Shown: positions 1 to 17,348 of the stretch, piece after piece
How positions within the stretch are numbered: position 1 is the first letter of the stretch
How the letters are laid out: each line of letters starts with the position of its first letter
From: Desulfobacterales bacterium
Lineage (GTDB): Bacteria; Desulfobacterota; Desulfobacteria; Desulfobacterales; JAHEIW01
Assembly (NCBI GenBank): GCA_020348305.1
Contig: CP070746.1
Location: forward strand, 4,345,742-4,409,741
Direction: 5' to 3'
Length of the DNA: 64,000 bases
Position numbers and translations under genes: made by a program
Notes under the pieces: model-generated
Databases searched by the model: none
What the model was told of the DNA's origin: nothing
What the model saw: the letters and a program-made list of their open reading frames with translations, nothing else

Positions 1-3000
1 GTGAGTTTCAAATTCAATTGCTCCTGCGAAGGAACTTTCTTTTTATGACTGCGCTTCACCATTTTCTCCAATTCTATAGCAGCTGCGTGAAGGTCGATGG
101 CCGCCAGGTTTCCGGTTACGCCTTTTAGATTGTGGACCAAACTGTGCACTTGCTCCATATCTTTTGCATCCAGCGCCTTTTGGATTTTGCTGGCAACCTC
201 GGCATAGTTGGCAGCAAAATTCAGCAGGAGCTTTTTGTAAAGACGTCGGTTTCCCTGCAAACGCTGAAGTCCTGATGATAGATCAAATCCGGGTAGTGTC
301 TGTGGCAAAGAATCTTCATCCACAGTCTGCGGCACGGGTCTAGAAGGTTTTGCGAATGTTTCCGGAACAGCTTCTTCTGAGATGTCGGCTTCCGGCTGCC
401 GGATTTGTCCTCGATCATCAGCTGATCGAATCCATTTATGGAGCGTAGCAAATAATTGATTCGGATCGATGGGTTTTGTGACATGGTCATCCATTCCGGC
501 ATCCAGACTTACTTCACGATCTCCAGCCATGGCATGGGCGGTCATAGCGATGATCGGCAGGCCTCTGATTTTAGATTTTGGATCTCGGATTTCGGATTTT
601 GAATCGGAATCCTTTCCGATTTTATTCCGCATTCCGCCTTCCCAATTCCGAATTCTTTTTGTAGCCTCGTATCCATCCATCACCGGCATCTGAACATCCA
701 TGAGCACGGCGTCATATTCATTTTCCTTTACTGCGCTTAGCGCCTCCTGGCCGTCATTGGCCAGAGCAACGTCGATCCCTGCGCCTTCTAAAATCTCCTG
801 AGCGACCTGTTGGTTAATTTCATTATCCTCCACCAACAGTACTCGCGCACCCTGGAAATATGTCAACCTGTCTGCTTCCCGATCGCTTTCGCGAATTTGT
901 TGAGCATGCTTTGGCATTTCTTCCCCGAAGGCATTCATAATCGTATCTAAAAGTACCGAAGGACTCACGGGTTTGAGTAGAAAACCCTCCAACCCTGCAT
1001 GTTCCGCCTTTTGTATAATTTCCTCACGGCTGTAAGCCGTTACCAGAACAATGGCGGGAATCTTGTTTAGGCGTGGATGATTTTTGATGCGTTTAGATAC
1101 TTCAATGCCGTCCATTCCCGGCATCTTCCAGTCCATCATCACCAGATCAAAAGGCTCGCTATCGGAGGCTTTCTCAATCTCTTCCAGGCCCTCTTCCCCA
1201 GAAGCAGCCTGTGTGACCTTGAATGAAAAAGATTCTAACAAGTCCTGGAGAATCTGCCGAGACGTAGCATTGTCATCCACCACCAAAACGTTTAAGTTCC
1301 TCAAATCCGATCCCGGGATACGTCTTTTTTTCTCTTTTTCCTGTCCCTGCTCAAAGGTGGCAGTGAAGCTGAACGTGCTGCCCTGGCCGGGTTCGCTTTG
1401 CACCCAGATCTCGCCGGCCATCATTTCTACCAAACGTTTGCTGATTGTCAAACCGAGTCCGGTGCCACCGTATTTGCGGGTGGTGGAGGTGTCAGCTTGA
1501 GAAAACGCCTCAAAAAGGCCCTGCATCTGTTCCTGGGTAAGCCCTACTCCAGTATCACTGACCGAAAACTTCAATGTCACCCGGCTATTGATCTGGTTGA
1601 CCAGTTCGGTGGAGACTACGATTTCCCCGGATTCGGTAAACTTGACGGCATTATTGGCTAAGTTGATGAGAATCTGCCCCAGCCGCAAGGGATCGCCGAC
1701 CAGAAATCGGGGTACATTCTGAGCTGTGGAGAAAAGAACTTCGAGTTCTTCTTTTTCTTGGGCTTTTACGGTGATAAGATTTGCCAAGTTATCCAAAACA
1801 TCTTCTAGGTTGAAGTCGACTGCTTCCATATCCAGCTTGCCGGCTTCAATTTTAGAGAAGTCCAAGATGTCGTTGATGATGCCCAAAAGGGAGTTGGCAG
1901 AAGATTGGATTTTCGCCAAATAATCCCGCTGCTTGGGTGTAAGCTCCGTCTTCAGCGCCAGGTGTGTCATGCCGATCACGGCGTTCATGGGCGTGCGAAT
2001 CTCATGGCTCATATTGGCCAGAAAATCGCCTTTGGCCTTGTTGGCTTCGTCGGCGGCTTGTTTGGCTTGGACCAATTCTTCTTCCATGTATTTGCGTTCG
2101 GTGATATCCCTTAGTGACTCAATGGCTCCTGCAATTTCTCCTTTCGTGTCATAAAGCAAACCCGCTGTGGCAGAAAGGTACATGCCTCCATCTCCCAAAT
2201 GTGGATGATAGGATTCCGAAACTAGGATATCGTTTTCTTTTTTAACCGCAATATACTCTTTTTCATAGTCAGCATCCCACTCCCGGATCAAATCGATTAA
2301 CACCGGTCTTCTCTCACCATAGAAGGGCAGGGCATATTCATAGTTGCCTTTGCCTACCATATCTTTTGCGCTTATCCCGAGGAGTTTCTGCATGGCCTGG
2401 TTCCATGTCACGACCTTTCCGTTATTATCAACCACCCAAGTGGGATCCGGCAGAAAATTAATAATTTGAGCCAGACGTCGTTGAGAGTTTTTTAATTCTA
2501 TGGTGCGTTCTTCAACGAGCTCTTCCAGATGGTCTCGATGTTTCCTCACTTCTTTCTCTGATGCTTTCAGGGCGCTTTCCGATTTATGCAATGTGCTGAT
2601 CATCTCGTTAAAGGACGTTGCCAGTTGCCCGATCTCGTCGCCGGATTGAATTTCTATCCTTTGATCCAGATTCTCCGTACGCGTGATAAGGTCGGTTCCT
2701 TCATTCAGTTTCGTGAGCGGTTTGATTACAAAATTTTGTAAACCGAGAAGTGTCAGCCCACTTAGCAGCAAAAGCGCCAGAACCAGCGCCAATATAATTT
2801 TGGCAACAAATCCCCAAATCACACGATCAATTTCTGTCTTCGGCATGATGACAGCCAGTTTCCACCGCTGGGCCGGAGATGTATAAAAAAACGCGTACCG
2901 CTTTTCTGAGTTATTTTCGAAGATTGAATATCCCTCTTTCTGCCTGAAGACCTCGCGGTACAGTGTTGCATCTTCAGCTTTCAAGCTTTTAAACATTGCA

Positions 3001-3701
3001 GATTTATCACGGCTCACGAGTATGGTTCCGTTTTCATCCACGAGACTGATAAAACCGTTATAATCCATTTCGATATCGGAAATATATTCCATCAACTCTG
3101 CCAGGGTAATGTAAACCCCGATGACGCCGTAAATATGCTGCTCATCATCAACCAGTGCTTTCACAAATCCTACGCTCACGTCGGTTGTCGTTACCGAGCG
3201 AAACGGCGGTGTGCGCATAATTTTTCCTGGATTTTCTTTGCCCAAAATATACCAGGGTCTCTTTCTAGGGTCATAGCGGGTTGGTTTAGCTCTTTTGTGA
3301 GATCTTACAAACCCTCCGTTTTCGCGTCCCATAGATACGGAATGGACAAATGGATGGGTAGTGCGGTAATTATTGAATACCGTGATGATCTTTTGCTCCA
3401 GATCACCAATAGCGTATTGAAAGGTTTTTTCATCCGCATTCAAGAAGTTGGTAAAATTTGCATCGTTTTTGGATCGAACGAAATCGTTTTGGGCAAGTGT
3501 TTCTAAATCATGCTCCATATTCTTAAAAAAACTGGTCAACCCAAAATCAATGTGCTCGAGCTGCTTATGATAATTTGCCGAAATCGTTTTAATAATAACT
3601 GCTCGCGTTGCCGATGAGAGCAGACCTCCCAAAATAACCAGAATACACAAACTAACACCTACATAAAGGAATAATATTTTATGCTTAAGTTTAAAATTCA
3701 T
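1..3701 (-). CDS. hybrid sensor histidine kinase/response regulator (TM-Cache-like-TM-HAMP-PAS-HisKA-HATPase-REC-REC-HPt); C-terminus runs off the window
   Basis: Uninterrupted minus-strand frame from the ATG at 3699-3701 to base 1. It is absent from the ORF track because there is no stop in the window. My own translation shows MNFKLKHKILFLYVGVSLCILVILGG (TM), HAMP (GDEIGQLATSFNEMI), PAS (FLPDPTWVVDNNGKVVTWNQAM), H-box (FLANMSHEIRTPMNAVIGM), G2 box (GGTGLGLTISKRLVEMMAG), two REC domains (VLVVDDN...DLVMMDWKMPGMDG; VLLVEDNEINQ...DAVLMDVQMPVMDG) and an HPt (HSLVHNLKGVTGNLA). Confidence 0.9.
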   Translation of the reverse strand, partial: MNFKLKHKILFLYVGVSLCILVILGGLLSSATRAVIIKTISANYHKQLEHIDFGLTSFFKNMEHDLETLAQNDFVRSKNDANFTNFLNADEKTFQYAIGDLEQKIITVFNNYRTTHPFVHSVSMGRENGGFVRSHKRAKPTRYDPRKRPWYILGKENPGKIMRTPPFRSVTTTDVSVGFVKALVDDEQHIYGVIGVYITLAELMEYISDIEMDYNGFISLVDENGTILVSRDKSAMFKSLKAEDATLYREVFRQKEGYSIFENNSEKRYAFFYTSPAQRWKLAVIMPKTEIDRVIWGFVAKIILALVLALLLLSGLTLLGLQNFVIKPLTKLNEGTDLITRTENLDQRIEIQSGDEIGQLATSFNEMISTLHKSESALKASEKEVRKHRDHLEELVEERTIELKNSQRRLAQIINFLPDPTWVVDNNGKVVTWNQAMQKLLGISAKDMVGKGNYEYALPFYGERRPVLIDLIREWDADYEKEYIAVKKENDILVSESYHPHLGDGGMYLSATAGLLYDTKGEIAGAIESLRDITERKYMEEELVQAKQAADEANKAKGDFLANMSHEIRTPMNAVIGMTHLALKTELTPKQRDYLAKIQSSANSLLGIINDILDFSKIEAGKLDMEAVDFNLEDVLDNLANLITVKAQEKEELEVLFSTAQNVPRFLVGDPLRLGQILINLANNAVKFTESGEIVVSTELVNQINSRVTLKFSVSDTGVGLTQEQMQGLFEAFSQADTSTTRKYGGTGLGLTISKRLVEMMAGEIWVQSEPGQGSTFSFTATFEQGQEKEKKRRIPGSDLRNLNVLVVDDNATSRQILQDLLESFSFKVTQAASGEEGLEEIEKASDSEPFDLVMMDWKMPGMDGIEVSKRIKNHPRLNKIPAIVLVTAYSREEIIQKAEHAGLEGFLLKPVSPSVLLDTIMNAFGEEMPKHAQQIRESDREADRLTYFQGARVLLVEDNEINQQVAQEILEGAGIDVALANDGQEALSAVKENEYDAVLMDVQMPVMDGYEATKRIRNWEGGMRNKIGKDSDSKSEIRDPKSKIRGLPIIAMTAHAMAGDREVSLDAGMDDHVTKPIDPNQLFATLHKWIRSADDRGQIRQPEADISEEAVPETFAKPSRPVPQTVDEDSLPQTLPGFDLSSGLQRLQGNRRLYKKLLLNFAANYAEVASKIQKALDAKDMEQVHSLVHNLKGVTGNLAAIDLHAAAIELEKMVKRSHKKKVPSQEQLNLKL
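567..655. repeat. heptad-phased repeat element (GATnnnn x5, central 8-bp hairpin, nATTCCG x4) inside the kinase CDS
   Basis: The + strand reads gatttta|gattttg|gatctcg|gatttcg|gattttg|aatcgga|atccttt|ccgattt|tattccg|cattccg|ccttccc|aattccg in one 7-nt phase. There is a perfect hairpin aatcggaa-tcct-ttccgatt at 602-621. It shares the 14-mer gcggaatgcggaat (reverse complement) with 9334-9380. Confidence 0.8.
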
Positions 3702-3918: not shown

Positions 3919-4284
3919 TTAACGTGCGGCCTTTTGCATCGCGTCAAGATAATTATCTAATTCTTTTATACTGGCAAAGACCCGCATAGACGGCAAAGCT
4001 TTTAGAACATCAAATACTTTTTTGATTTGTGGCTGAAGTTTCATGAAGACGACCTTGCCATCGCATTTTTTCATGTGCTTTCTTGACTTCAATAATACCC
4101 GCACGCCCATGCTGTTGATATAATCTAAAAATTCCATGTCAAAAATAATGACATTCGGCTTTTCCTTTAACACTGAATCTACTTTTTCTTCCAAAATTGT
4201 ATAGGTTCTCGTATCAACTGATCCGATCGGAGAAATAGTGATAATTCCCGGTCTTGTTTGAGTTGATGTAACTTTAAGCGACAT
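3919..4284 (-). CDS. STAS-domain protein (anti-sigma-factor antagonist, SpoIIAA-like)
   Basis: 121 aa. It shows the typical STAS pattern: ITISPIGSVDTRTYTILEEKV...VIIFDMEFLDYINSMGVRVLL...VVFMKLQPQIKKVFDV. Confidence 0.8.
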   Translation of the reverse strand: MSLKVTSTQTRPGIITISPIGSVDTRTYTILEEKVDSVLKEKPNVIIFDMEFLDYINSMGVRVLLKSRKHMKKCDGKVVFMKLQPQIKKVFDVLKALPSMRVFASIKELDNYLDAMQKAAR

Positions 4285-4368: not shown

Positions 4369-4920
4369 CTATTCTAAGCCAAACCATTTTTTAAAAAGTG
4401 ACTTCAAGGAACTGTGCTTTGCGATTTCATGGCCGATGAGGGATCGTGGAGCCAAATTCTCGGGCCACCAATCTACGGCATCAAAAGAAAAGGGAAGTAT
4501 GCTCTCCAGCGCCGGTATTAGCTTTTTTTCAATCAAAACGTTTTCGCGCTCCTCCAAGGATCGAAAATAGATATTCACCTCTTCAACATACCAGTCTCGG
4601 ATATGCGCTAATGAGTCCAAGGAAACTTTAACGATTTTTTCAAAACTCTTGCCCAGTTTCGGTCGAATGGATTCATCGGTGAGGGTTTTGAATATTTCAT
4701 TAAGCTTATATTTTAAGCTTTCATCTCCTTCGGTATCAATGATAAATGTGAGCGTCAGATGGCCACCACCGTAAGGCCGATGGAATGTTGAGATTTTAAT
4801 GACCCCATCTTTGCTGATATCATGATTCTCCCGTTGAAGAAGAAAGCTGACAAATGCAGTCATTTTTTCATGTGCTTTTATGGAGAGATAGCTTCTTTTG
4901 GGGTCAAATTCTTTTGTCAT
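4369..4920 (-). CDS. hypothetical protein (183 aa), no family recognised
   Basis: Clean ORF co-directional with the flanking genes, with coding-like composition. I recognise no motif. Confidence 0.6.
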   Translation of the reverse strand: MTKEFDPKRSYLSIKAHEKMTAFVSFLLQRENHDISKDGVIKISTFHRPYGGGHLTLTFIIDTEGDESLKYKLNEIFKTLTDESIRPKLGKSFEKIVKVSLDSLAHIRDWYVEEVNIYFRSLEERENVLIEKKLIPALESILPFSFDAVDWWPENLAPRSLIGHEIAKHSSLKSLFKKWFGLE

Positions 4921-5019: not shown

Positions 5020-5916
5020 TCAAACACCTACTCCTGCTTGATCGGTATCGGGCAAATCAAAAGTGAGCCGCTCGAATTCTGCAATTACCTGAGCACCTAA
5101 TAGCAGGATGATGACCGCAACTTCGATGCTGAGCAGAGCCACCACCGCGGTAGCCAGTGATCCATAGATCACATTTACCAGAGAAAGTCTTGAGTAATAC
5201 CAGACCAGTATGTGGCGTATGATTTCCCATAACACCGTTGCGGTGAAACCGCCGATAATGGCGTGACGAATGGAGATGTGTCCCACTGGCATCACCATGT
5301 ACAAAGACGTGAGCATAATCACCATACCCAACATTCCCGACAAATACAGCACAAATCTGGATGAGCCTGCCAGGCTCAAATCCCAGCCAAAAATTATTAC
5401 ATGCTTATCTGCCAGCGCATCTAATGCTCCGGCGACCAGGGTAACCAGTAACAATCCAAATCCCATCAGAAATATATACGCGTACGGGATGATGGCGGAG
5501 ATGAGAAAATGCCGACGATGTTTTTTTGCCCGGTGGGAAAAAATAACTGCCATTGCACTTTCAAGCACGGTGAACGCCATTGAGCTGAAGAACATCATAA
5601 ACAGGATACCGAATACGCCAACCAATTGTCGACGGGCCAGAAATCCCCACACCTGGCCGGCCACTCTTTCAGCATGTCCGGGAATTACCAGTTTTAAATG
5701 GCTAAGTATGGTGGTATACAGTTGTTCCTCTTCGATAAAATGCGAAAACCCAACCAAGATGAGTGCAAACATGGGTACAATGGATAGCAACGTGTAATAG
5801 GCCACGGCACCTGATAATAACAGACCCTGGTTGCGCTTGAAATTGCGAAGCACACTTAGAATGAAACGACTAGGTTGACGCAGGATAAAATTTTCAATTT
5901 TTTTATCGCTTCCCAT
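5020..5916 (-). CDS. YihY/BrkB (virulence factor BrkB / former ribonuclease BN) family membrane protein
   Basis: 298 aa and polytopic. N-terminal signature NFKRNQGLLLSGAVAYYTLLSIVPMFALIL. Confidence 0.8.
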   Translation of the reverse strand: MGSDKKIENFILRQPSRFILSVLRNFKRNQGLLLSGAVAYYTLLSIVPMFALILVGFSHFIEEEQLYTTILSHLKLVIPGHAERVAGQVWGFLARRQLVGVFGILFMMFFSSMAFTVLESAMAVIFSHRAKKHRRHFLISAIIPYAYIFLMGFGLLLVTLVAGALDALADKHVIIFGWDLSLAGSSRFVLYLSGMLGMVIMLTSLYMVMPVGHISIRHAIIGGFTATVLWEIIRHILVWYYSRLSLVNVIYGSLATAVVALLSIEVAVIILLLGAQVIAEFERLTFDLPDTDQAGVGV

Positions 5917-6672: not shown

Positions 6673-7404
6673 ATGCATCCAGATAGGATAAGAAAACCCA
6701 TACCATCAAAGCTGTCAGCAGGCACTCAGAAACGAAAACCAATTACAGCCTGTATTCGTTGCGGTACGTGCTGCCAAAAAGGAGGCCCTTCCTTTCACCA
6801 TGCGGACAAAAACCTGATTGAAAAGGGCATAATTCATTCTCGCCATCTTTACACAATACGCAGGGGGCAACTTGCATATGATAATGTTAGAGACTGTCTG
6901 ATGCCCGTTGATTCGGATATCATTAAAATTAAGGGGAAAAAGGATTCGTGGGCGTGTATCTTTTTTGAGGAAGACGAAAAGGCTTGCCGGATTTATGCGA
7001 ATCGACCGCTGGAGTGCAGAGTACTTAAATGCTGGGACACACGAGAAATAGAAAAAATTTACGCTGAAAATCGGCTGACTCGCAAGGATCTGATATCCGA
7101 GGTCAAAGGACTTTGGGATCTGATTAAAGACCATCAGGGCCGTTGTGATCATGAAAAGATCCACAAATGGGTGAAAGCGCTGGACAGCGCCATAAAAAAG
7201 GAAGCCCGGAAAGAACTCATTGAACTTATCCAATATGATACGGAAATTCGAAAACTGGTTGTTTCCAAAGCAGGGTTGGATGCTGAGATGCTGGATTTTT
7301 TGTTTGGCCGGCCGCTTATTGAAACAATTGAGAATTATGGGCTGAATGTTGAGCAAAGCGGCAAGAAAATTAGCTTAATGTCGACTTCTCGGCGGAAAAA
7401 ATAA
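6673..7404 (+). CDS. YkgJ-family cysteine-cluster (Fe/Zn-chelating) protein
   Basis: 243 aa. CxxCxxCC motif CIRCGTCCQKGGP and second cluster ACIFF...ACRIYANRPLECRVLKC. Confidence 0.75.
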   Translation: MHPDRIRKPIPSKLSAGTQKRKPITACIRCGTCCQKGGPSFHHADKNLIEKGIIHSRHLYTIRRGQLAYDNVRDCLMPVDSDIIKIKGKKDSWACIFFEEDEKACRIYANRPLECRVLKCWDTREIEKIYAENRLTRKDLISEVKGLWDLIKDHQGRCDHEKIHKWVKALDSAIKKEARKELIELIQYDTEIRKLVVSKAGLDAEMLDFLFGRPLIETIENYGLNVEQSGKKISLMSTSRRKK

Positions 7405-7464
7405 CCTCAAATTTGTGCAGAATCAAAAGGCTTCCCATTCATTCCTTGCAGGCTGATTCCTTGG

Positions 7465-8595
7465 TTATAGCTGCGATAATTGTTCTTCGTCTATCTGTTC
7501 GATTTCTTCCTGCTCCGAGTTAGAAGTGGCTTGAGGTTCCGCTTCTTTTTCGCTTGACGTTGCTTCGGATGAAACGTCGCCCCAAATGTATTTTCCGTAT
7601 TTAAGGTAGCCCAGAACATTGTTCAAACGAGGATCACTATCGGGGTCTACCGGTTGGACATTTCCATGGATCAGCGGCTGAAGATAGTGAGCCAATTCTC
7701 TGCAACCGCCACCGGTTAAAATGATCGTATCGATATCCCAATCATCAGCCCATAGGCGGTCAATGTCGTTTGCAATTGTACCGGCTAGCTGCGAATAGAC
7801 CTGGTCCCTGATTTTTGTAAAGGTAAATCCGTGTCCCTTCATCTTGATGGAACCCATCTCAGCTGCTTTATACAGACGGTAAAGCTCAACGTTTACCCCG
7901 CATTTTTCACGCAGTTTGTTTGATATGACGCCAAACCCCTTAGAAATTCCCGTGTCTATGGTTCTACTTCCGCGATCAATATAGCGCAAATGATCTAAAA
8001 TGGTAAAATCAGTGGTTCGAAAACCAATATCAACCACACCGATCTTTTGATTGGCTAGTTCGTCATTGACAATTTTGCCGTTGTCATCCATTAGGACGTT
8101 TAATACTGTGCCTAAAGGTTGCGGCAGCATGCGGACTTTGTTGATATATATTTCTTTCGTGTTTTGCTGACCATCGAAAGAGTGATAGGTTACCCTGTGA
8201 TGGCCGGTCATGATATCATTAAATCGCGCGTAATTTTGTTTGAAAAAGCCGATTGGCAGCCCAGACACAACATTAAGGGGAACATTTATCTTTCCACCAT
8301 TTTTGAAAAACATTCCGGCCACAGTTAGCGCTAAAATTCTGACGAAATCCGTGATCAATCGCTCCTGGTCAAGCGTAAAATTGAGAACACTGGATTGTTG
8401 TTCGGCTAAGTCGCCGATAAAATAAGATTTACCATCAATGGTCACGTGAAGATGATCGAGAGAAGAATTTTCGCCAAAATCGGTCCAAAATTGAATATCA
8501 TTTGCATCGCCAAAAATAGATTTGAAAATTACGGTTTCTTTTCCATTGGTTGCTTTTGTAAATCCAAAACCGATGTCGATGCCCAGGATATGCAT
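7465..8595 (-). CDS. ParM/StbA-family actin-like ATPase with acidic C-terminal tail
   Basis: 376 aa. Actin-fold phosphate/adenosine motifs ILGIDIGFGFTKA, VVDIGFRTTDFTI, IILTGGG. The tail SSEKEAEPQATSNSEQEEIEQIDEEQLSQL is acidic. Confidence 0.75.
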   Translation of the reverse strand: MHILGIDIGFGFTKATNGKETVIFKSIFGDANDIQFWTDFGENSSLDHLHVTIDGKSYFIGDLAEQQSSVLNFTLDQERLITDFVRILALTVAGMFFKNGGKINVPLNVVSGLPIGFFKQNYARFNDIMTGHHRVTYHSFDGQQNTKEIYINKVRMLPQPLGTVLNVLMDDNGKIVNDELANQKIGVVDIGFRTTDFTILDHLRYIDRGSRTIDTGISKGFGVISNKLREKCGVNVELYRLYKAAEMGSIKMKGHGFTFTKIRDQVYSQLAGTIANDIDRLWADDWDIDTIILTGGGCRELAHYLQPLIHGNVQPVDPDSDPRLNNVLGYLKYGKYIWGDVSSEATSSEKEAEPQATSNSEQEEIEQIDEEQLSQL

Positions 8596-8770: not shown

Positions 8771-9403
8771 TTACACAATCGTCCATTCAATCTTGAAATC
8801 GTTTTGAACGATGGAAGCAATATGGTCATAAAAAAAGTAGTGTTCGAGTTGCCATAATTTATTCATGTAATCGATCTCCAAATGATGATCGTCGATAATT
8901 CGATGAATTCGACATTTCAAAAGATCTTTAATGCCGGTTATGGAGGCTTTCAGAACCGCTTCTTTTGAGGTCCAGTAACGGAAAAATATTGCAAAATCCT
9001 TTTTCGATTGATCGGCAAGGGCCCATTCCGATTCGCCGGCGGTTTTTTTGAAAAGGCCCAGGGAACAGGGTTGGATTTTCTCGATATCGATGCCGATGGG
9101 TTCCGGAGCTACCACGCCGCCTACATATTCGGTTTTATGGGTTATGGCCCAATAGATATCATCAGAAGGCAGAGGGGCACCACTTTCATTTTTATTTAAT
9201 TCACCTAGTGAAATACAACTTTTTTTTGCGGATAATTTAAGCGCTTTTCTGGCATATCGGCCGAGAAAGGTGACCCGGTCTCGAGGTCTGAAATCCGTAA
9301 CATTTTTAGGTACCGATAGGATGACAGGGTTGAGAATTCGATTGCGGAATGCGGAATGCGGAATGCGGATTGAATCCGATGTCATGCGACCTCCGCGGGG
9401 CAT
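8771..9403 (-). CDS. 4'-phosphopantetheinyl transferase (Sfp-type); start uncertain (9403 or 9385)
   Basis: Motifs PIGIDIE and WTSKEAVLKA. The first ~25 codons run through the GGAATGC tandem repeat. Confidence 0.75.
   Translation of the reverse strand: MPRGGRMTSDSIRIPHSAFRNRILNPVILSVPKNVTDFRPRDRVTFLGRYARKALKLSAKKSCISLGELNKNESGAPLPSDDIYWAITHKTEYVGGVVAPEPIGIDIEKIQPCSLGLFKKTAGESEWALADQSKKDFAIFFRYWTSKEAVLKASITGIKDLLKCRIHRIIDDHHLEIDYMNKLWQLEHYFFYDHIASIVQNDFKIEWTIV
9334..9380. repeat. tandem heptamer repeat (AATGCGG x3 plus degenerate flanks) ending in a small hairpin
   Basis: gaattcg|attgcgg|aatgcgg|aatgcgg|aatgcgg|attgaat|ccgatgt; hairpin cggatt-ga-atccg. Same word family as 567-655. Confidence 0.8.
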
Positions 9404-9416
9404 GCAGATTTATTGT

Positions 9417-10331
9417 TTACAAATCTGGTAATTCTGTTTTCAAATTTCTAACATTTTGTTCTCTGAATCTCAGTGCTTCTTCATATATTTTTTTTTTGGG
9501 CAGATGATACTTTTTTGCCAGATGCCTGGCAATCTCTGAAACCTTTTCCTCGTTTGATTCTAGAGTTGATCTGATCTCTTTTCGCACTTCTTCCCAAGAA
9601 ATACTTTTTTTTTCTTTTCTTCCGCTTACCAAAAGGGTGCATTCACCTTTGATTTCCGATCGCTTTTTTAACTTTTCAATTATTTCTGACAGCAATCCTC
9701 TCACAAATTCTTCATGAAGCTTTGTCATTTCCCTGGCTAAGACGCCATTTCGATCACCCATAGTGGCAATGATTTCCTTTAAAAGCGAGAGAATTCGTTT
9801 AGGAGATTCGTAAAAAATGATCGTGCGCTGTTCGGTGGCAACCTCATTGAGTTGTTTCAGACGCTTTGCTTTTCTCTTAGAAAGAAAACCGGCAAAAACA
9901 AATGTATCTGTCGGAAAGCCTGCGACGCTGAGCGCAGCGGTGGCTGCGGACACGCCGGGAATGGGAACGAGTTTTATATTTTTGATTATGGCTGACTCGA
10001 TTAAGCGGTATCCGGGATCTGAAACAGAGGGTGTACCGGCATTAGAGACCAGGGCAATGGACACTCCGCTTTTTAATTTATTTATCAGTTTCGGTGTCCG
10101 TTTGTCTTCATTGTGTTCATGATAAGAGATCAAGCTGCATTTTATGTTGTGCCGTGTTAAAAATCTTCGGGTTTTTCGGGTATCTTCAGCAGCAATCAGG
10201 TCTACTTCGCGCAAAACATTGAGAGCTCTTAATGTGATGTCATCTTTGTTGCCGATCGGCGTGGCTACAACGTAAAGTTTGCCAACTTTATGACGACCTT
10301 CAGATTCATTCGTAGGCAAGTTCGAAGGCAT
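9417..10331 (-). CDS. rsmI: 16S rRNA (cytidine1402-2'-O)-methyltransferase
   Basis: LYVVATPIGNKDDITLRALNVLREVDLIAAEDTRKTRRFL is the RsmI N-terminal signature. Tetrapyrrole-methylase fold length. Confidence 0.9.
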   Translation of the reverse strand: MPSNLPTNESEGRHKVGKLYVVATPIGNKDDITLRALNVLREVDLIAAEDTRKTRRFLTRHNIKCSLISYHEHNEDKRTPKLINKLKSGVSIALVSNAGTPSVSDPGYRLIESAIIKNIKLVPIPGVSAATAALSVAGFPTDTFVFAGFLSKRKAKRLKQLNEVATEQRTIIFYESPKRILSLLKEIIATMGDRNGVLAREMTKLHEEFVRGLLSEIIEKLKKRSEIKGECTLLVSGRKEKKSISWEEVRKEIRSTLESNEEKVSEIARHLAKKYHLPKKKIYEEALRFREQNVRNLKTELPDL

Positions 10332-10677: not shown

Positions 10678-10784
10678 GATGAATAGATCAGAATTTAAAA
10701 CTTTATTTGGGCCTTAAGGCAGAGTTATCTGATGATTGAATATTTAAGGAATTCTATCATCTTCAATTGAAAATCGTCAATTCG

Positions 10785-11390
10785 TTAAAGGTATTCTTTT
10801 ACTCCTTTAAAACTTCGCCGATGGATAAGAGAACAGCCGAATTTACGGATCGCTTCTTTGTGGGCTTTAGTCGGATATCCCTTGTGTTGGGGAAAGCAGA
10901 ATTGGGGATAATAAAGGTGATAACTTTCCATTAGCCTGTCCCGGGTGACTTTGGCAATTATAGATGCTGCGGAGATAGAGACACTCAGACTGTCTCCTTT
11001 GGCGATCGGTTTTTGGGGAAGTTGCGATGAAATGCGAAAGGTGCCGTCGATGAGAAGACAATCCGGTTTAGGATTAAGGTTATCCACCGCGATCGCCATT
11101 GCAAGCAGCGAGGCTTGAAGAATATTGATTCGATCAATCTCTACAGGGTCAACAATGCCAATTCCAATTGCGACGGCGTGCGCATATATTTTATCGTATA
11201 GCCGAGCACGTTTCTTTGCAGAGAGTTTCTTTGAATCCATCACGCCTGAAAGTGCAAAAGTAGATGGCAGGATAACTGCTGCAGAAACAACAGGGCCAGC
11301 CAAGGGACCCCGGCCGGCCTCGTCGATTCCAGCAATATCTCTATAGCCATTTTCTGTGGCTTCTTTTTCGAAAAACCACATATCTTTCAT
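10785..11390 (-). CDS. rnhB: ribonuclease HII
   Basis: IAGIDEAGRGPLAGPVVSAAV and the GDSLSVSISAASIIAKVTRD motifs. Confidence 0.9.
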   Translation of the reverse strand: MKDMWFFEKEATENGYRDIAGIDEAGRGPLAGPVVSAAVILPSTFALSGVMDSKKLSAKKRARLYDKIYAHAVAIGIGIVDPVEIDRINILQASLLAMAIAVDNLNPKPDCLLIDGTFRISSQLPQKPIAKGDSLSVSISAASIIAKVTRDRLMESYHLYYPQFCFPQHKGYPTKAHKEAIRKFGCSLIHRRSFKGVKEYL

Positions 11391-11563
11391 CAGAAGTCAG
11401 ATAACAGATGCCGGAGGGTGGAAGACAGATGTCAGCTCACAGATATCAGAGTTCAGATGACAGAATGAATAAAACGAAATTATGGTGCCTGCTTTCTGCC
11501 GCCTGTCTGCTGTTGTCTGATCTCTGTTTTCTGACTTCTAACTTCTGTCCTCTGTTATTTCGA
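11391..11563. repeat. 173-nt heptad-phased hairpin element filling the whole rplS-rnhB intergenic region (CAGnnnn arm / CTGnnnn arm)
   Basis: Split from 11391 in 7-nt steps, 9 of heptads 1-11 start with CAG, heptads 12-14 form the loop, and 9 of heptads 15-24 start with CTG (one CTA). The arm ends are complementary at 16 of 18 positions (cagaagtcagataacaga / tctgttttctgacttcta). Confidence 0.85.
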
Positions 11564-11911
11564 TTAATTAAGTCGCCGTTCTTTAATCCTTGCAGCTTTA
11601 CCGCGCAGTTTGCGCAGGTAGTAGATTTTTGCGCGGCGGACCCGACCGCGTGAAACCACCTCAACTTTGCTGATTACGGGAGAATGAAGCGGGAAGATAC
11701 GTTCGACACCAATACCGTAAGAAACTTTTCGAACTGTAAAGGTGGCATTGACGGTACCCTTGCGCTTGCTAATGACAACTCCCTGAAAAACCTGGATGCG
11801 TTCTTTTTCCCCTTCCTTTATTTTGACGTGGACTTTGACGGTATCACCTGGTCCGAAATCCGGTAGATCAAGTCGCATATTTTCCCTATCGATTTGCTTT
11901 AACTTTTCCAT
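11564..11911 (-). CDS. rplS: 50S ribosomal protein L19
   Basis: 115 aa; [29 protein letters not shown]...[19 protein letters not shown] Shine-Dalgarno sequence upstream. Confidence 0.95.
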
Positions 11912-11925
11912 AACTCCTCCAGTCG

Positions 11926-12011
11926 TTCATCCGAATTATTTGTTAGTTATTCGTTATACGGCTATTTGTAACAGGGTGTTTGGTTATCAATTAACCAATA
12001 ACGAATAACCC
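11926..12011. repeat. heptad-phased hairpin element (TTAnnnn / TAAnnnn) between the SPOUT gene and rplS
   Basis: Perfect 12-bp inverted repeat gttattcgttat (11946-11957) / ataacgaataac (11998-12009). Nested hairpin tggtta-tcaat-taacca. Phase: ttatttg|ttagtta|ttcgtta ... taaccaa|taacgaa|taaccct. Confidence 0.8.
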
Positions 12012-12577: not shown

Positions 12578-12598
12578 GAAATTCTATTTTTTAATTTA

Positions 12599-12673
12599 CC
12601 GCAGAGGCCACAGAGGGCACAGAGTAATATTTTTAATTATTTTCTCTGTGTTCTCAGTGCTCTCTGTGGTGAA
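12599..12673. repeat. 9-nt-period hairpin element (CACAGAGGn x3 / CTCTGTGnn x3) overlapping the trmD stop
   Basis: ccgcagagg|ccacagagg|gcacagag - AT-rich loop - ctctgtgtt|ctcagtgct|ctctgtggt. The trmD TGA stop (12654-12656) lies in the 3' arm. Confidence 0.8.
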
Positions 12674-13449: not shown

Positions 13450-13974
13450 TTATTCCAACCCCTCAGGTAATTCAACCCGCATGCGTTTCTTTTCAAGATC
13501 AATCGCTTGAACAACCGACTCGAGTGCCGGAATCAAAATCTCATCCTCGCCTTTTTTTACGACATAGACGTCATTGCTTCCGGTTTGGAGGATTGAATCC
13601 AGACGCCCGAGATAGTTGTTGTCGGTTGTAAACACCTCCAGTCCGATAAGATCATACCAGTAATATGATCCGTCATCCAGCTCAGGCAGTTGCGCCTTTT
13701 CAATAAACAGCTCGGAACCGATCAGCGCTTGTGCCTGAATGCGAGTCGTTACCCCTTTTAATGAAAGAAGATCAACTTTGGAGTGGGGTTTGGCCCAGTT
13801 GATTTCGTAGACGTTTTTCAGTCCGGAAGAAGTTGAGATAAGAATTTCGCTGCCGGGTTGGAAAACAGTTAGCGATTCAGCATACGAACGGATCTTGCAG
13901 TTTCCCTTTACACCGTGGGCACCAACAATCTTACCGATAAGGATTAAGCCCTTTTTCGCCGAGGAACTATTCAA
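13450..13974 (-). CDS. rimM: 16S rRNA processing protein RimM
   Basis: 174 aa; [22 protein letters not shown] and the PRC-barrel C-terminus. Canonical position upstream of trmD. Confidence 0.9.
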
Positions 13975-15941: not shown

Positions 15942-16150
15942 AGCAAAATGGGCTTTGTTTTAATAAATTATTGAAAATATAATTTAAAGGGTGTTATGTC
16001 AAGTAAATTGTACAGTAGATTGGAATATTGGAGCACTGTTAAGCAGAGTTCGTTGAGAAATATTTTGTGCTGCAAATACCGACTAATAAAATCCCAAATT
16101 CCAAGCACCAAATTATATATATTAAGCTATGGTTGAAGGCCGTTTTTGAT

Positions 16151-17203
16151 ATGTTGACTGAACGTAAGAAAAAAAACATCCTCGATATTTCCCGCGATCA
16201 ACTACTCGCCTGGCTGGACAATCAGGGGATTGAATCCTATCGCGCTGATCAAATTTTAAAATGGATCTATCTTCGCCAGTCAGATACCTTTGAGGGAATG
16301 ACGGATTTGAGCAAACAGATCCGGCAATTATTGTCACAGCATTTTACCATCCTTCGGCTTGATATCGTTCGAATTGAAACCAGCAAAGACGGTTCACAAA
16401 AGTATTTATTCCGACTTAAAGACAATAAGCACATAGAATCTGTACTGATACCCGAAAGAGATCATTATACGCTATGTATATCCAGCCAGGTGGGATGTAT
16501 CCAAGATTGTCGATTTTGCCTGACGGCCATCGGCGGTTTTGAGCGAAATTTGACCGCCGCTGAGATTATTGCGCAGGTGCGGGATGTTAAAAACCTTTGT
16601 GATGATGCCAACCGCTTGAGCAATATCGTATTCATGGGGATGGGCGAACCCTTGGCAAACTATAAAAATCTGGTCAGCGCCATAAAGGTCATCACAGACA
16701 GTGATGCCGGACTGAGCTTTTCCAATCGGAAAGTCACGGTCTCTACAGCCGGTCTGATACCAAAACTTTCGGCCTTGGGTGATGACACCAAAGTTAATCT
16801 GGCGATTTCTTTGAATGCCACCGACAACAAAACCCGCAACAAATTGATGCCTTTAAATCGGAAATACCCGCTTGAACTGCTGCTGGAAGCCTGTCGCAAT
16901 TATCCTCTGGCTCCCGGGCGCCGGATCACCTTTGAGTATATTCTTATAAAAGGCATCAATGATTCGGAAGACGATGCCCGCCGGCTGGCCAAACTGTTGC
17001 GGCCCATTAAGGCCAAAATCAATCTAATACCTTTTAACACTCACGAAGGCTGTGAATATGAGCGCCCGGAGGAAACGGTGATCAATCGATTTCAGGAGAT
17101 TTTGATCCATAAAAACTATACTGTCATCATCCGTCACAGCAAGGGGCAGGATATTTCGGCTGCTTGTGGGCAGTTGAAGGCAAGATTAGGTATTGGGAAT
17201 TAG
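16151..17203 (+). CDS. rlmN: 23S rRNA/tRNA (adenine-C2)-methyltransferase, radical SAM
   Basis: CxxxCxxC motif GCIQDCRFC, GMGEPLAN, and C-terminal SAACGQL. I preferred the ATG at 16151 over the GTG at 16067. Confidence 0.9.
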   Translation: MLTERKKKNILDISRDQLLAWLDNQGIESYRADQILKWIYLRQSDTFEGMTDLSKQIRQLLSQHFTILRLDIVRIETSKDGSQKYLFRLKDNKHIESVLIPERDHYTLCISSQVGCIQDCRFCLTAIGGFERNLTAAEIIAQVRDVKNLCDDANRLSNIVFMGMGEPLANYKNLVSAIKVITDSDAGLSFSNRKVTVSTAGLIPKLSALGDDTKVNLAISLNATDNKTRNKLMPLNRKYPLELLLEACRNYPLAPGRRITFEYILIKGINDSEDDARRLAKLLRPIKAKINLIPFNTHEGCEYERPEETVINRFQEILIHKNYTVIIRHSKGQDISAACGQLKARLGIGN

Positions 17204-17211
17204 ATAGATGG

Positions 17212-17253
17212 CAGAAGTCAGATCTCAGCGTCCAGAGGGCAAAAAACCGAGAG
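17212..17253. repeat. half-copy of the CAG-heptad element immediately after the rlmN stop
   Basis: cagaagt|cagatct|cagcgtc|cagaggg|caaaaaa|ccgagag. The first 12 nt (cagaagtcagat) are identical to the start of the 11391 element. There is no complementary CTG arm. Confidence 0.6.
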
Positions 17254-17348
17254 AGACTATCACTAAAAGAACGGATGCCACATCCGCACGGATCAGCGGT
17301 TTCATGTTACTTTAAGATATCCAACCCAAAAATCTTTTTTGGGTCTCA

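Follow-up and report, generated by a model that had tools for sequence, protein, structure and literature searches.

Opposed CAG/CTG heptamer arrays fill the rplS-rnhB spacer of a Desulfobacterales bacterium and very probably belong to a widespread, catalogued repeat type

We analyzed a 64-kb stretch of DNA from a Desulfobacterales bacterium (assembly GCA_020348305.1, contig CP070746.1), hereafter the window, in which the spacer between the genes for ribosomal protein L19 (rplS) and RNase HII (rnhB) is made up of heptanucleotide repeats in two opposed arms. Both genes are encoded on the minus strand, and the DNA between them spans exactly 11391-11563, or 173 nt. The element fills this entire gap, with the rplS stop codon at one edge and the rnhB ATG at the other, and the gene coordinates agree on this point with an earlier sequence-only reading of the window. 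The locus is laid out as follows.

10785..11390, minus strand: rnhB, RNase HII, 201 aa, an open reading frame (ORF) with its ATG at 11390-11388
11391..11467, plus strand: arm adjoining rnhB, 11 heptads cut from 11391, nine of which start with CAG
11468..11488, 21 nt: central non-periodic segment of three heptads (AATAAAA CGAAATT ATGGTGC), the loop region of the fold
11489..11563, plus strand: arm adjoining rplS, ten heptads at 11489-11558 (nine CTG, one CTA) followed by TTCGA
11564..11911, minus strand: rplS, ribosomal protein L19, 115 aa, from the ORF list, with its TAA stop (11566-11564) adjoining the element

The Pfam family Ribosomal_L19 is annotated on an identical protein in Logan contigs L081 and L082, and the N-terminus of RnhB agrees by eye with orthologues in L002, L005 and L006. 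Cutting the spacer into heptads from 11391 reproduced the counts of the sequence-only reading, namely CAG at the start of nine of the first 11 heptads, three loop heptads, and CTG at the start of nine of the last ten with CTA in the remaining one. The two exceptions in the rnhB-side arm are CGGAGGG and TGGAAGA. On the mRNA, which corresponds to the minus strand, the rplS-side arm becomes a purine-rich 5' arm (CAGAGGA CAGAAGT TAGAAGT CAGAAAA CAGAGAT CAGACAA CAGCAGA CAGGCGG CAGAAAG CAGGCAC), while the rnhB-side arm becomes a pyrimidine-rich 3' arm (ending ATCTGTT ATCTGAC TTCTG) that continues straight into the start codon as cTGATG. With all 21 arm heptads placed in the CAG register, position 1 was C in 19, position 2 was A in 19, position 3 was G in all 21 and position 4 was A in 17, while positions 5-7 were variable. 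Two units matched the full consensus CAG-R-A-K-T at 7/7 positions, four at 6/7 and nine at 5/7, and this poor fit marks the rplS-rnhB element as a degenerate copy.

The observed feature is real and striking. In-phase CAG and CTG words numbered 18, compared to 3.8 ± 1.0 (maximum 8) in 5000 dinucleotide-preserving shuffles of each half, and identity at lag 7 was 0.554, compared to 0.297 ± 0.035 in shuffles (z = 7.3), which is the highest lag-7 autocorrelation in the window. A two-arm search pattern matched the spacer on both strands and was found in 0 of 100 shuffles of the window. The same 173 nt occur unchanged in one Logan assembly and with a single nucleotide polymorphism in another, and since these two assemblies are independent an assembly artefact is excluded. 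Exact-protein look-ups for further strains returned nothing on record for RsmI and RnhB, and two short contigs only for RplS. By eye, ATG occurs in four of the nine CAG units of one arm and in none of the ten units of the other; selection against start codons on the sense strand was rejected as an explanation, because the wider class of elements described below carries 2.04 vs. 1.67 starts per 100 nt, with no sense/antisense difference.

Folding of both strands, which the sequence-only reading had proposed, gave −50.1 kcal/mol for the mRNA strand (z = −2.6 relative to shuffles), as a long imperfect hairpin, and −57 kcal/mol for the opposite strand (z = −2.7). The structure is not the one continuous hairpin that had been claimed. 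When one arm was compared with the reverse complement of the other, identity was 56-62% at each in-phase offset (−19, −12, −5, +2, +9 and +16) and 9-33% at all out-of-phase offsets. Because every in-phase offset is equally good, the arms are complementary only through their common unit consensus and have no unique pairing register; the hairpin is in this sense slippery, with pairing possible in several 7-nt registers. The outer arms, said to be complementary at 16 of 18 positions, reach at best 13 of 18 with a 1-nt bulge, or 11 Watson-Crick pairs and one G-U pair ungapped. A generic inverted-repeat finder did not pick up the element, as the arms have no common 8-nt exact complementary seed. 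The register scan, together with the mirror-order test given below, ruled out a true palindrome or inverted duplication.

We compared the same junction in related genomes. A tblastn search with RplS returned 562 relatives, the best match (85% identity) being a Desulfosarcinaceae metagenome-assembled genome (MAG), and judging from this protein the window belongs to a Desulfobacterales-like bacterium. Orthologous rplS-rnhB junctions were looked at in 80 genome loci. Among about 20 related Desulfobacterales MAGs the spacer was 15-60 nt in most and the heptad hairpin was found in none, so the comparison that the sequence-only reading had called for could be made but yielded no second copy, and covariation analysis of this locus is impossible since no homologous element exists at the orthologous junctions. 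The comparison identifies the rplS-rnhB element, as far as these genomes indicate, as a lineage-specific insertion or expansion. The element-free junctions and a one-arm copy elsewhere in the window (at 17212, below) are the observations that we count in favor of insertion.

Two further observations concern the surroundings of rplS in other genomes. The related MAG L004 carries a different hairpin insertion of about 150 nt (3349-3500; GTGTTGACCACAAATGG…CCATTTCTGGTTCAACAC) directly after rplS in place of the short spacer, and the junction downstream of rplS seems to accept hairpin insertions repeatedly. Period-7 arrays also lie within 1 kb of rplS in other deltaproteobacterial and Gemmatimonadales MAGs (L072 at 2886-2956 and 4002-4064, L025 at 3972-4070, L005 at 3978-4048); their units differ (GTTTCAA/GAAAC, GTAAGGA, TGGTCGT/TATCAGC and GGGAGAA), and one of them is two-armed and immediately upstream of rplS.

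Absence from relatives is also what would be expected if the element were a neutral by-product, that is, a heptamer repeat that polymerase slippage produced and enlarged in a spacer able to accommodate it, now in decay, with an accidental and functionless hairpin. The degeneracy of the units, only two of 21 of which fit the full consensus, agrees with this explanation. So does the constant length of the spacer in all three strains compared, as expected of a degenerate repeat that no longer slips. We consider it rather unlikely, for reasons that emerge once the element is placed among its analogues.

Two-arm heptamer hairpins, which the sequence-only reading took to be undescribed, have been catalogued in kind, an outcome that this reading had itself named as one that would count against it. 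In Geobacter metallireducens, Aklujkar et al. (2009, BMC Microbiol 9:109, PMC2700814) listed eight pairs of 'class 3 predicted global regulator binding sites' (Gmet_I301-I308 A/B), each with about five tandem heptanucleotides of consensus MTYCTGA on opposite strands with variable spacing, between adjacent genes such as moaA/mosC, cbiG/cobQ and proB/proA. The unit MTYCTGA is the reverse complement of CAGRAKT, and the class 3 units AATTCTG, ACTCCTG and ACTTCTG are the reverse complements of CAGAATT, CAGGAGT and CAGAAGT. The A(−)/B(+) layout corresponds to the same CAG-to-CTG polarity on the plus strand, and the placement between the 3' end of one gene and the 5' start of the next, including within operons (proB/proA), is likewise shared. 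The Geobacter pairs differ in having about five well-conserved units per arm with a recurrent AATTCTG-ACTCCTG core, compared to 10-11 units per arm in the window, where only two of 21 fit the full consensus although 17 of 21 retain all of CAGA, and the host of the window element, being Desulfobacterales-like by RplS, belongs to a different order. Thus the YCTG(A)/(T)CAGR core, the polarity and the intergenic placement of convergent CAGR-heptamer arrays, Geobacter class 3 included, are all found in the rplS-rnhB element. The element is known in kind and is not a new class. For the Geobacter sites, Aklujkar et al. proposed a global regulator, guessing at IHF/HU-type binding (PMC2700814). No description of such arrays was found for Desulfobacterales in the literature, in line with the sequence-only reading, and literature searches with literal unit strings such as CAGAAGTCAGAAGT returned only eukaryotic microsatellite and primer matches.

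The extent of the class was assessed with the pattern CAGA-N3-(CAG-N4)x3, a gap of 4-34 nt, and (CTG-N4)x4, which specifies 25 bases and has a chance expectation below 1. At least 120 metagenome contig loci and 93 IMG/VR stretches matched, on contigs with GC contents of 31% to 72%. The free positions among the matches listed (at least 120 metagenome loci) gave the consensus CAG-A-(A/G)-G-(T/A), with CAGAAGT, CAGAAGA, CAGAGGT, CAGAGGA and CAGGAGT as the commonest units among them. The units of the window that are among the commonest listed metagenome units are CAGAAGT (twice), CAGAGGA, CAGAAAA, CAGAGAT, CAGAAAG and CAGATGA. Arms most often had 4-5 units (range up to 35), which is not the case for the interrupted arms of 11 and 10 units at rplS-rnhB. 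Arm lengths were weakly correlated (ρ = 0.26) and inter-arm gaps varied widely, from 0 to 34 nt. The single fixed phase that had been emphasized in the window element is present there but is not a property of the class, as the relative phase of the arms was evenly spread over 0-6 among 120 metagenome analogues in the matches listed; the single phase over 25 heptads is therefore a 1-in-7 coincidence of loop length. Elements were mostly intergenic, commonly 1-20 nt from both flanking ORFs, and their gene context was co-directional in 43 cases, convergent in nine and divergent in seven.

The order of variant units was not mirrored between arms: among 175 heterogeneous elements the mean z was 0.09, and p ≤ 0.05 was reached in 2.3%. 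The arms are thus independent arrays of one unit family. Flanks past the arrays were complementary over at least 6 nt in 15% of cases, compared to 4.5% by chance. Polarity was strongly one-sided, with 93 IMG/VR stretches in the CAG-to-CTG order and five in the reversed CTG-to-CAG pattern, and with 268 and seven neighboring array pairs, respectively, in the retrieved loci. Since the reverse complement keeps the same architecture, a transcript of either strand has its purine-rich arm on the 5' side and its pyrimidine-rich arm on the 3' side; relative to genes, stop codons are followed by CAG-type sequence, and CTG-type sequence comes before start codons. Among solitary arrays beside start codons, the coding strand carried the CTG type in a ratio of 25:3, which suggests a constraint at the level of the transcript. 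Control cores searched in IMG/VR gave four matches for ACC/GGT, 26 for GGA/TCC and 21 for GAC/GTC, and many of the GGA/TCC and GAC/GTC matches represent further unit families with the same architecture (GGAATGC/GCATTCC, GACAATT, GGGAATN). What these data add is the reach of the class beyond Geobacter (at least 120 metagenome and 93 IMG/VR loci), its 18:1 polarity, the unmirrored arms, and the existence of several unit families within one architecture.

With the layout, the relatives and this census together, the rplS-rnhB element is very probably a lineage-specific degenerate copy of a widespread, catalogued and uncharacterised type, opposed CAGR-heptamer arrays. Its units would multiply by replication slippage separately in each arm, which would explain why the arms have a common consensus and no mirrored order.

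Neutral slippage alone would equally leave arms without mirrored order or covariation. However, it does not predict the 93:5 polarity, a common CAG(A) core across contigs of 31-72% GC, the uneven conservation of the unit (positions 1-4 kept, 5-7 free) or the preferred 4-5 units per arm (about five in Geobacter), and an explanation by slippage alone struggles with polarity, core conservation and preferred arm size. Nor does it predict that near-identical copies occur, loops included, four times in one phage-like contig. Such copies were seen in the IMG/VR contigs L275 and L260 (GC 0.62-0.63), each with four elements of the form (CAGAATG)4-GAAAGACTTTTGA-(ATTCTGC)3, most of which fit within about 10 nt between co-directional ORFs.

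L275: element copies at 139-190, 4757-4814, 7264-7322 and 13818-13876
L260: element copies at 5418-5476, 6780-6838, 7442-7499 and 9943-10001

These look like either dispersed copies of one element or repeated transcript punctuation. Dispersed copies would be expected of a MITE-like non-autonomous mobile element, inserted between rplS and rnhB, whose arms would be terminal inverted repeats made of transposase-binding heptads. Terminal inverted repeats naturally give a single polarity, an arm followed by its reverse complement and never the reverse, and mobility would account for lineage-specific presence and absence, for partial copies within the same genome and for one array lying in frame in a coding sequence (below). 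However, target-site duplications were not detected across 200 elements, where the longest direct repeat between flanks averaged 3.6 nt compared to 3.5 nt for mismatched flank pairs. No conservation is seen in the internal segment, with its gaps of 0 to 34 nt, the arms are not mirror copies of one another, element ends are fuzzy and no transposase is associated. A mobile element is accordingly a quite improbable source of the arms.

A conserved core of 3-4 nt at a fixed spacing of 7 nt with the remainder variable is the signature of triplet-reading oligomers, and the preferred number of 4-5 units and the convergent-only orientation are typical of oriented protein sites. The arrays could therefore bind a multimeric protein that reads one core per 7 nt, either a global regulator or nucleoid protein on DNA, as in the putative global-regulator, possibly IHF/HU, annotation of the Geobacter sites (PMC2700814), or a HutP-like reader on RNA. 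HutP provides a precedent, as the hexamer reads two sites, each with three XAG motifs at 7-nt intervals (U498, U505, U512; Gopinath et al. 2008, PMC2425495). The hut terminator RNA is an analogue only in how it works, with XAG triplets 7 nt apart in two blocks with a linker within a terminator hairpin; it has three motifs per block, both blocks carry XAG on the same strand, the arms are not complementary, and it is Bacillus-specific. No HutP homologue is known in the organism of the window, in which no search for one was made. The omega repressor of pSM19035 is reported to bind arrays of 7-bp heptads in an orientation-sensitive manner, which would also fit a protein array. The relative phase and spacing of the arms are unconstrained, arguing against one continuous protein assembly, and on RNA only one arm would bear XAG motifs. 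We have no candidate protein to name, none having been sought in the window, and to our knowledge HutP is confined to Bacillus and its relatives, which contrasts with a class spanning contigs of 31-72% GC. A protein-binding array thus appears improbable.

Period-7 arrays recur within the window. A scan for strong lag-7 arrays found three in the 64 kb and none in 20 shuffles, and a weaker solitary array escaped the scan, so the enrichment elsewhere that had been anticipated for such heptads was borne out. Three strong arrays were found in 110 kb of Desulfobacterales relatives and five in 370 kb of other genomes. Periods 5, 8, 10 and 11 gave no strong arrays anywhere searched, and periods 6 and 9 gave arrays almost only in the other genomes, which we took to be coding repeats. 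Period 7 was thus the sole non-coding periodicity enriched in the window and its relatives. This agrees with the neutral explanation and with the proposal of polymerase slippage behind over-represented heptameric repeats, at least as Mrazek (2007) is cited by Rehm et al. (2015, PMC4692102); Huang and Mrazek (2014) do not mention heptamers. The repeats and hairpins of the window other than the rplS-rnhB element are the following.

563-655, within the minus-strand gene 1-3701: two-arm heptamer element of TCGGATT/GGATTTC units followed by ATTCCGC/ATTCCGA units
9343-9369: (TGCGGAA)x4 with perfect units, situated between the stop of rsmI (9417) and the main part of a 4'-phosphopantetheinyl transferase ORF
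11946-12009, Methyltrn_RNA_4-rplS spacer: 27-nt imperfect inverted repeat (GTTATTCGTTAT… / …ATAACGAATAAC)
12598..12670, minus strand, trmD to Methyltrn_RNA_4 spacer: sister element of the same architecture built on a 9-nt unit, located two spacers away in this operon
17212..17239, plus strand: solitary one-arm array CAGAAGT CAGATCT CAGCGTC CAGAGGG, the weaker array missed by the lag-7 scan

The array at 17212-17239 is identical at 22 of 28 positions to the outermost stretch of the rplS-rnhB element (11391-11418), begins 8 nt past the stop of a plus-strand gene (16067-17203) and has no complementary arm; an ordinary T-run terminator hairpin lies downstream of it at about 17318-17340. The 563-655 element lies in frame in the second receiver domain of a Cache-HAMP-PAS-HisKA-HATPase-REC-REC-Hpt hybrid kinase, where it lengthens the loop between 'ATKRIR' and 'LPIIAMTAH' (…NWEGGMRNKIGKDSDSKSEIRDPKSKIRG…), and its combination of left-arm and right-arm units recurs in the IMG/VR contig L316. 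That arrays are tolerated in frame inside a receiver domain is a further point for neutrality. The units at 9343-9369 fall either in the annotated N-terminus of the transferase ORF or in its 5' leader, and two-arm hairpins built from this unit (GGAATGC/GCATTCC) were seen in several IMG/VR contigs, L307, L310 and L323 among them. The sister element at 12598-12670 reads CAGAGGCCA CAGAGGGCA CAGAGTAAT, an AT-rich loop, then TTCTCTGTG TTCTCAGTG CTCTCTGTG, that is, three CAGAGGNCA units, the loop and three TTCTCTGTG-like units, and gives a beaded hairpin with a folding energy of −31 kcal/mol (z = −7.1). This 9-mer hairpin (TCTCTGTG/TCTCAGTG) resembles Geobacter class 2, in which three tandem TCTCCGTS[Y] units occur in pairs (PMC2700814), and its units fit that consensus at 7 of 8 positions; its Rfam matches were only sub-threshold plant microRNA precursors, taken as chance. 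The Geobacter class 1 octamer (GTTGCTYN x2) was absent from the window. The inverted repeat at 11946-12009 folds to −26 kcal/mol (z = −4.2) directly upstream of the strong rplS Shine-Dalgarno sequence GGAGGAG, and each of the three consecutive spacers from trmD to rnhB thus holds a long hairpin (z = −7.1, −4.2 and −2.6).

Other known repeats were compared with the element. Xanthomonas genomes carry heterogeneous (GGGANTN)n heptamers at about 186 sites each, four units being commonest, and 70-75 of these sites consist of two convergent arrays able to form stem-loops; they are transcribed (Rehm et al. 2015, PLoS One, PMC4692102). Like the window element they have a conserved core with variable positions and lie near ORF ends, although their core is G-rich (GGGAATC) and forms G-quadruplexes, while the rplS-rnhB core is CAGA; the GGATTTC/ATTCCGC pair at 563-655 is closer to this family. 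The TAACTGA direct repeats of Beggiatoaceae, Cyanobacteria and Bacteroidetes comprise exact units in 2-6 copies on the coding strand a few nucleotides from start codons, in ribosomal protein operons and usually ahead of genes without a Shine-Dalgarno sequence; a post-transcriptional role was proposed for them, and they are predicted to be unstructured, with one 'indirect' repeat noted (MacGregor 2015, PMC4679880). Similarities to the rplS-rnhB element are the CTGA-containing heptamer and an array end near a start codon without a Shine-Dalgarno sequence (the last CTG overlaps the ATG in cTGATG), while the spacer contains no TAACTGA, the nearest unit being TATCTGA once in the 3' arm, and the TAACTGA class has no two-arm architecture.

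The short tandemly repeated repetitive (STRR) sequences of Cyanobacteria (Mazel et al. 1990) are said to be tandem intergenic heptanucleotide arrays that are abundant per genome, with several unit families in each. Their reported units CCCCAGT, TTGGTCA and CAACAGT occur mostly in direct arrays not defined by convergent pairing. None of these is among the 21 units in the window, and the kinship with STRR-type arrays noted from the sequence holds for tandem intergenic organization, though the units differ. The repeat is neither a coding repeat nor a CRISPR array, as had been recognized: the unit is 7 nt long, compared to 25-40 nt for the direct repeats of a CRISPR, there are no spacers and two arrays oppose each other. 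Repetitive extragenic palindromic (REP) sequences and bacterial interspersed mosaic elements (BIMEs), together with RNase III-type intercistronic hairpins, form stem-loops in polycistronic mRNA that stabilize the upstream cistron and uncouple the expression of neighbors. REPs are true palindromes of about 35 nt with conserved sequence and an associated RAYT transposase. The intercistronic stem-loop is alike in both cases, but REPs have no 7-nt periodicity, making REP/BIME an analogue only in how it works.

A long stem-loop directly after a highly expressed ribosomal protein gene might be an intrinsic bidirectional terminator that closes the trmD-rplS operon before rnhB, particularly as a purine-5'/pyrimidine-3' polarity mimics the A-tract, stem and T-tract of such terminators and the class commonly includes T-rich units, TTTTCTG for example. 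However, no T-run follows the stem, whose 3' arm runs straight into the ATG, a terminator scan of 11391-11563 gave no terminator-like site on either strand, and five or more T within 8 nt past the arm were seen in only 12.7% of class elements. On the minus strand, neither the spacer nor the sequence after it contained a promoter-like site for rnhB, and full termination would therefore silence rnhB. Termination as the role of the element is thus very improbable, and the element is not a canonical intrinsic terminator. In the rnhB-yraN spacer, a sigma-70-like promoter match (TTGACG-18-TAGAAT with an upstream TG, 10/12) was seen on the minus strand at 10751-10780, and the genes after rnhB may have their own promoter. 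Rfam gave no match in the window at the gathering score, and only weak chance-level matches to the spacer at E ≤ 10.

The absence of a Shine-Dalgarno sequence at the rnhB start, as noted from the sequence, was confirmed by an anti-Shine-Dalgarno duplex of −1.5 kcal/mol, compared to a window median of −4.75. The absence is real, yet not special, as several neighboring genes of the operon and the short orthologous rplS-rnhB spacers also have no such sequence.

As a tentative proposal, and one that more probably fails than holds, the element may function as a slippery intercistronic stem-loop in mRNA, a role that we infer entirely from the observations above. The element would be transcribed within a trmD-rplS-rnhB mRNA, in which the purine-rich and pyrimidine-rich arms would pair in any of several 7-nt registers to form a stem-loop of about −50 kcal/mol, aided by G-U pairs, which this division of purines and pyrimidines between the arms allows. 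The stem would loop out the 173 nt so that the stop codon of rplS and the start codon of rnhB meet at its base, and would bury the rnhB start, itself without a Shine-Dalgarno sequence. Such a stem would act as an intercistronic insulator, shielding the abundant L19 message at its 3' end or setting where that end lies, while RNase HII would be made at a low level that requires ribosomes terminating at rplS to open the base of the stem, a form of translational coupling. For an RNA role we count the fold, the three hairpins of the operon, the co-directional context, flank complementarity, arm-length correlation, polarity and the missing Shine-Dalgarno sequence.

Several results weigh against this proposal. 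Its absence from relatives makes the element dispensable at the junction, and the mRNA folds only modestly better than its shuffles. Neither covariation nor mirrored order was detected, so no specific base pair seems to be selected, and a structural role struggles with the absence of covariation. Related arrays also occur in frame within a coding region, and a one-arm array occurs after a stop codon, neither of which a hairpin role would call for. The 25:3 ratio of solitary arrays is not wholly independent, since it was drawn from loci chosen for their paired elements and may include pairs with one degenerate arm. Combining identity, origin and function, we assign the reading of the element as a lineage-specific copy of opposed CAGR-heptamer arrays that acts as a slippery stem-loop a probability of about 45%.

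The single locus carries little weight, being a dispensable, degenerate insertion in the trmD operon of one lineage. The class may be of more consequence. It includes hundreds of loci in metagenome and phage contigs with a common architecture, core and strict polarity, yet the only descriptions we found are a supplementary figure of a 2009 genome paper and the analogous G-rich family of Xanthomonas. A constant 3-4-nt core at 7-nt spacing over 31-72% GC, a preference for 4-5 units per arm and a polarity of 18:1 that goes with gene orientation are the basis for a bolder suggestion that we consider a long shot: convergent CAGRRGT/ACYYCTG arrays could be a cis-element across bacteria and phages that is shaped or read by a conserved cellular component, which might be a multimeric protein that takes one triplet in every 7 nt, ribosomes or RNase machinery engaging a slippery hairpin that tolerates several registers, or the replisome. 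If so, the arrays would be a general, unrecognised form of intercistronic punctuation of which the rplS-rnhB element is one working example. If the elements tune neighboring cistrons or bind a common factor, they would represent a widespread regulatory device with a reach comparable to that of REP elements, and one that at present goes unnoticed by annotation pipelines and Rfam. The elements are also relevant to the question of why repeats of 7 nt, above other lengths, are over-represented in bacterial genomes.

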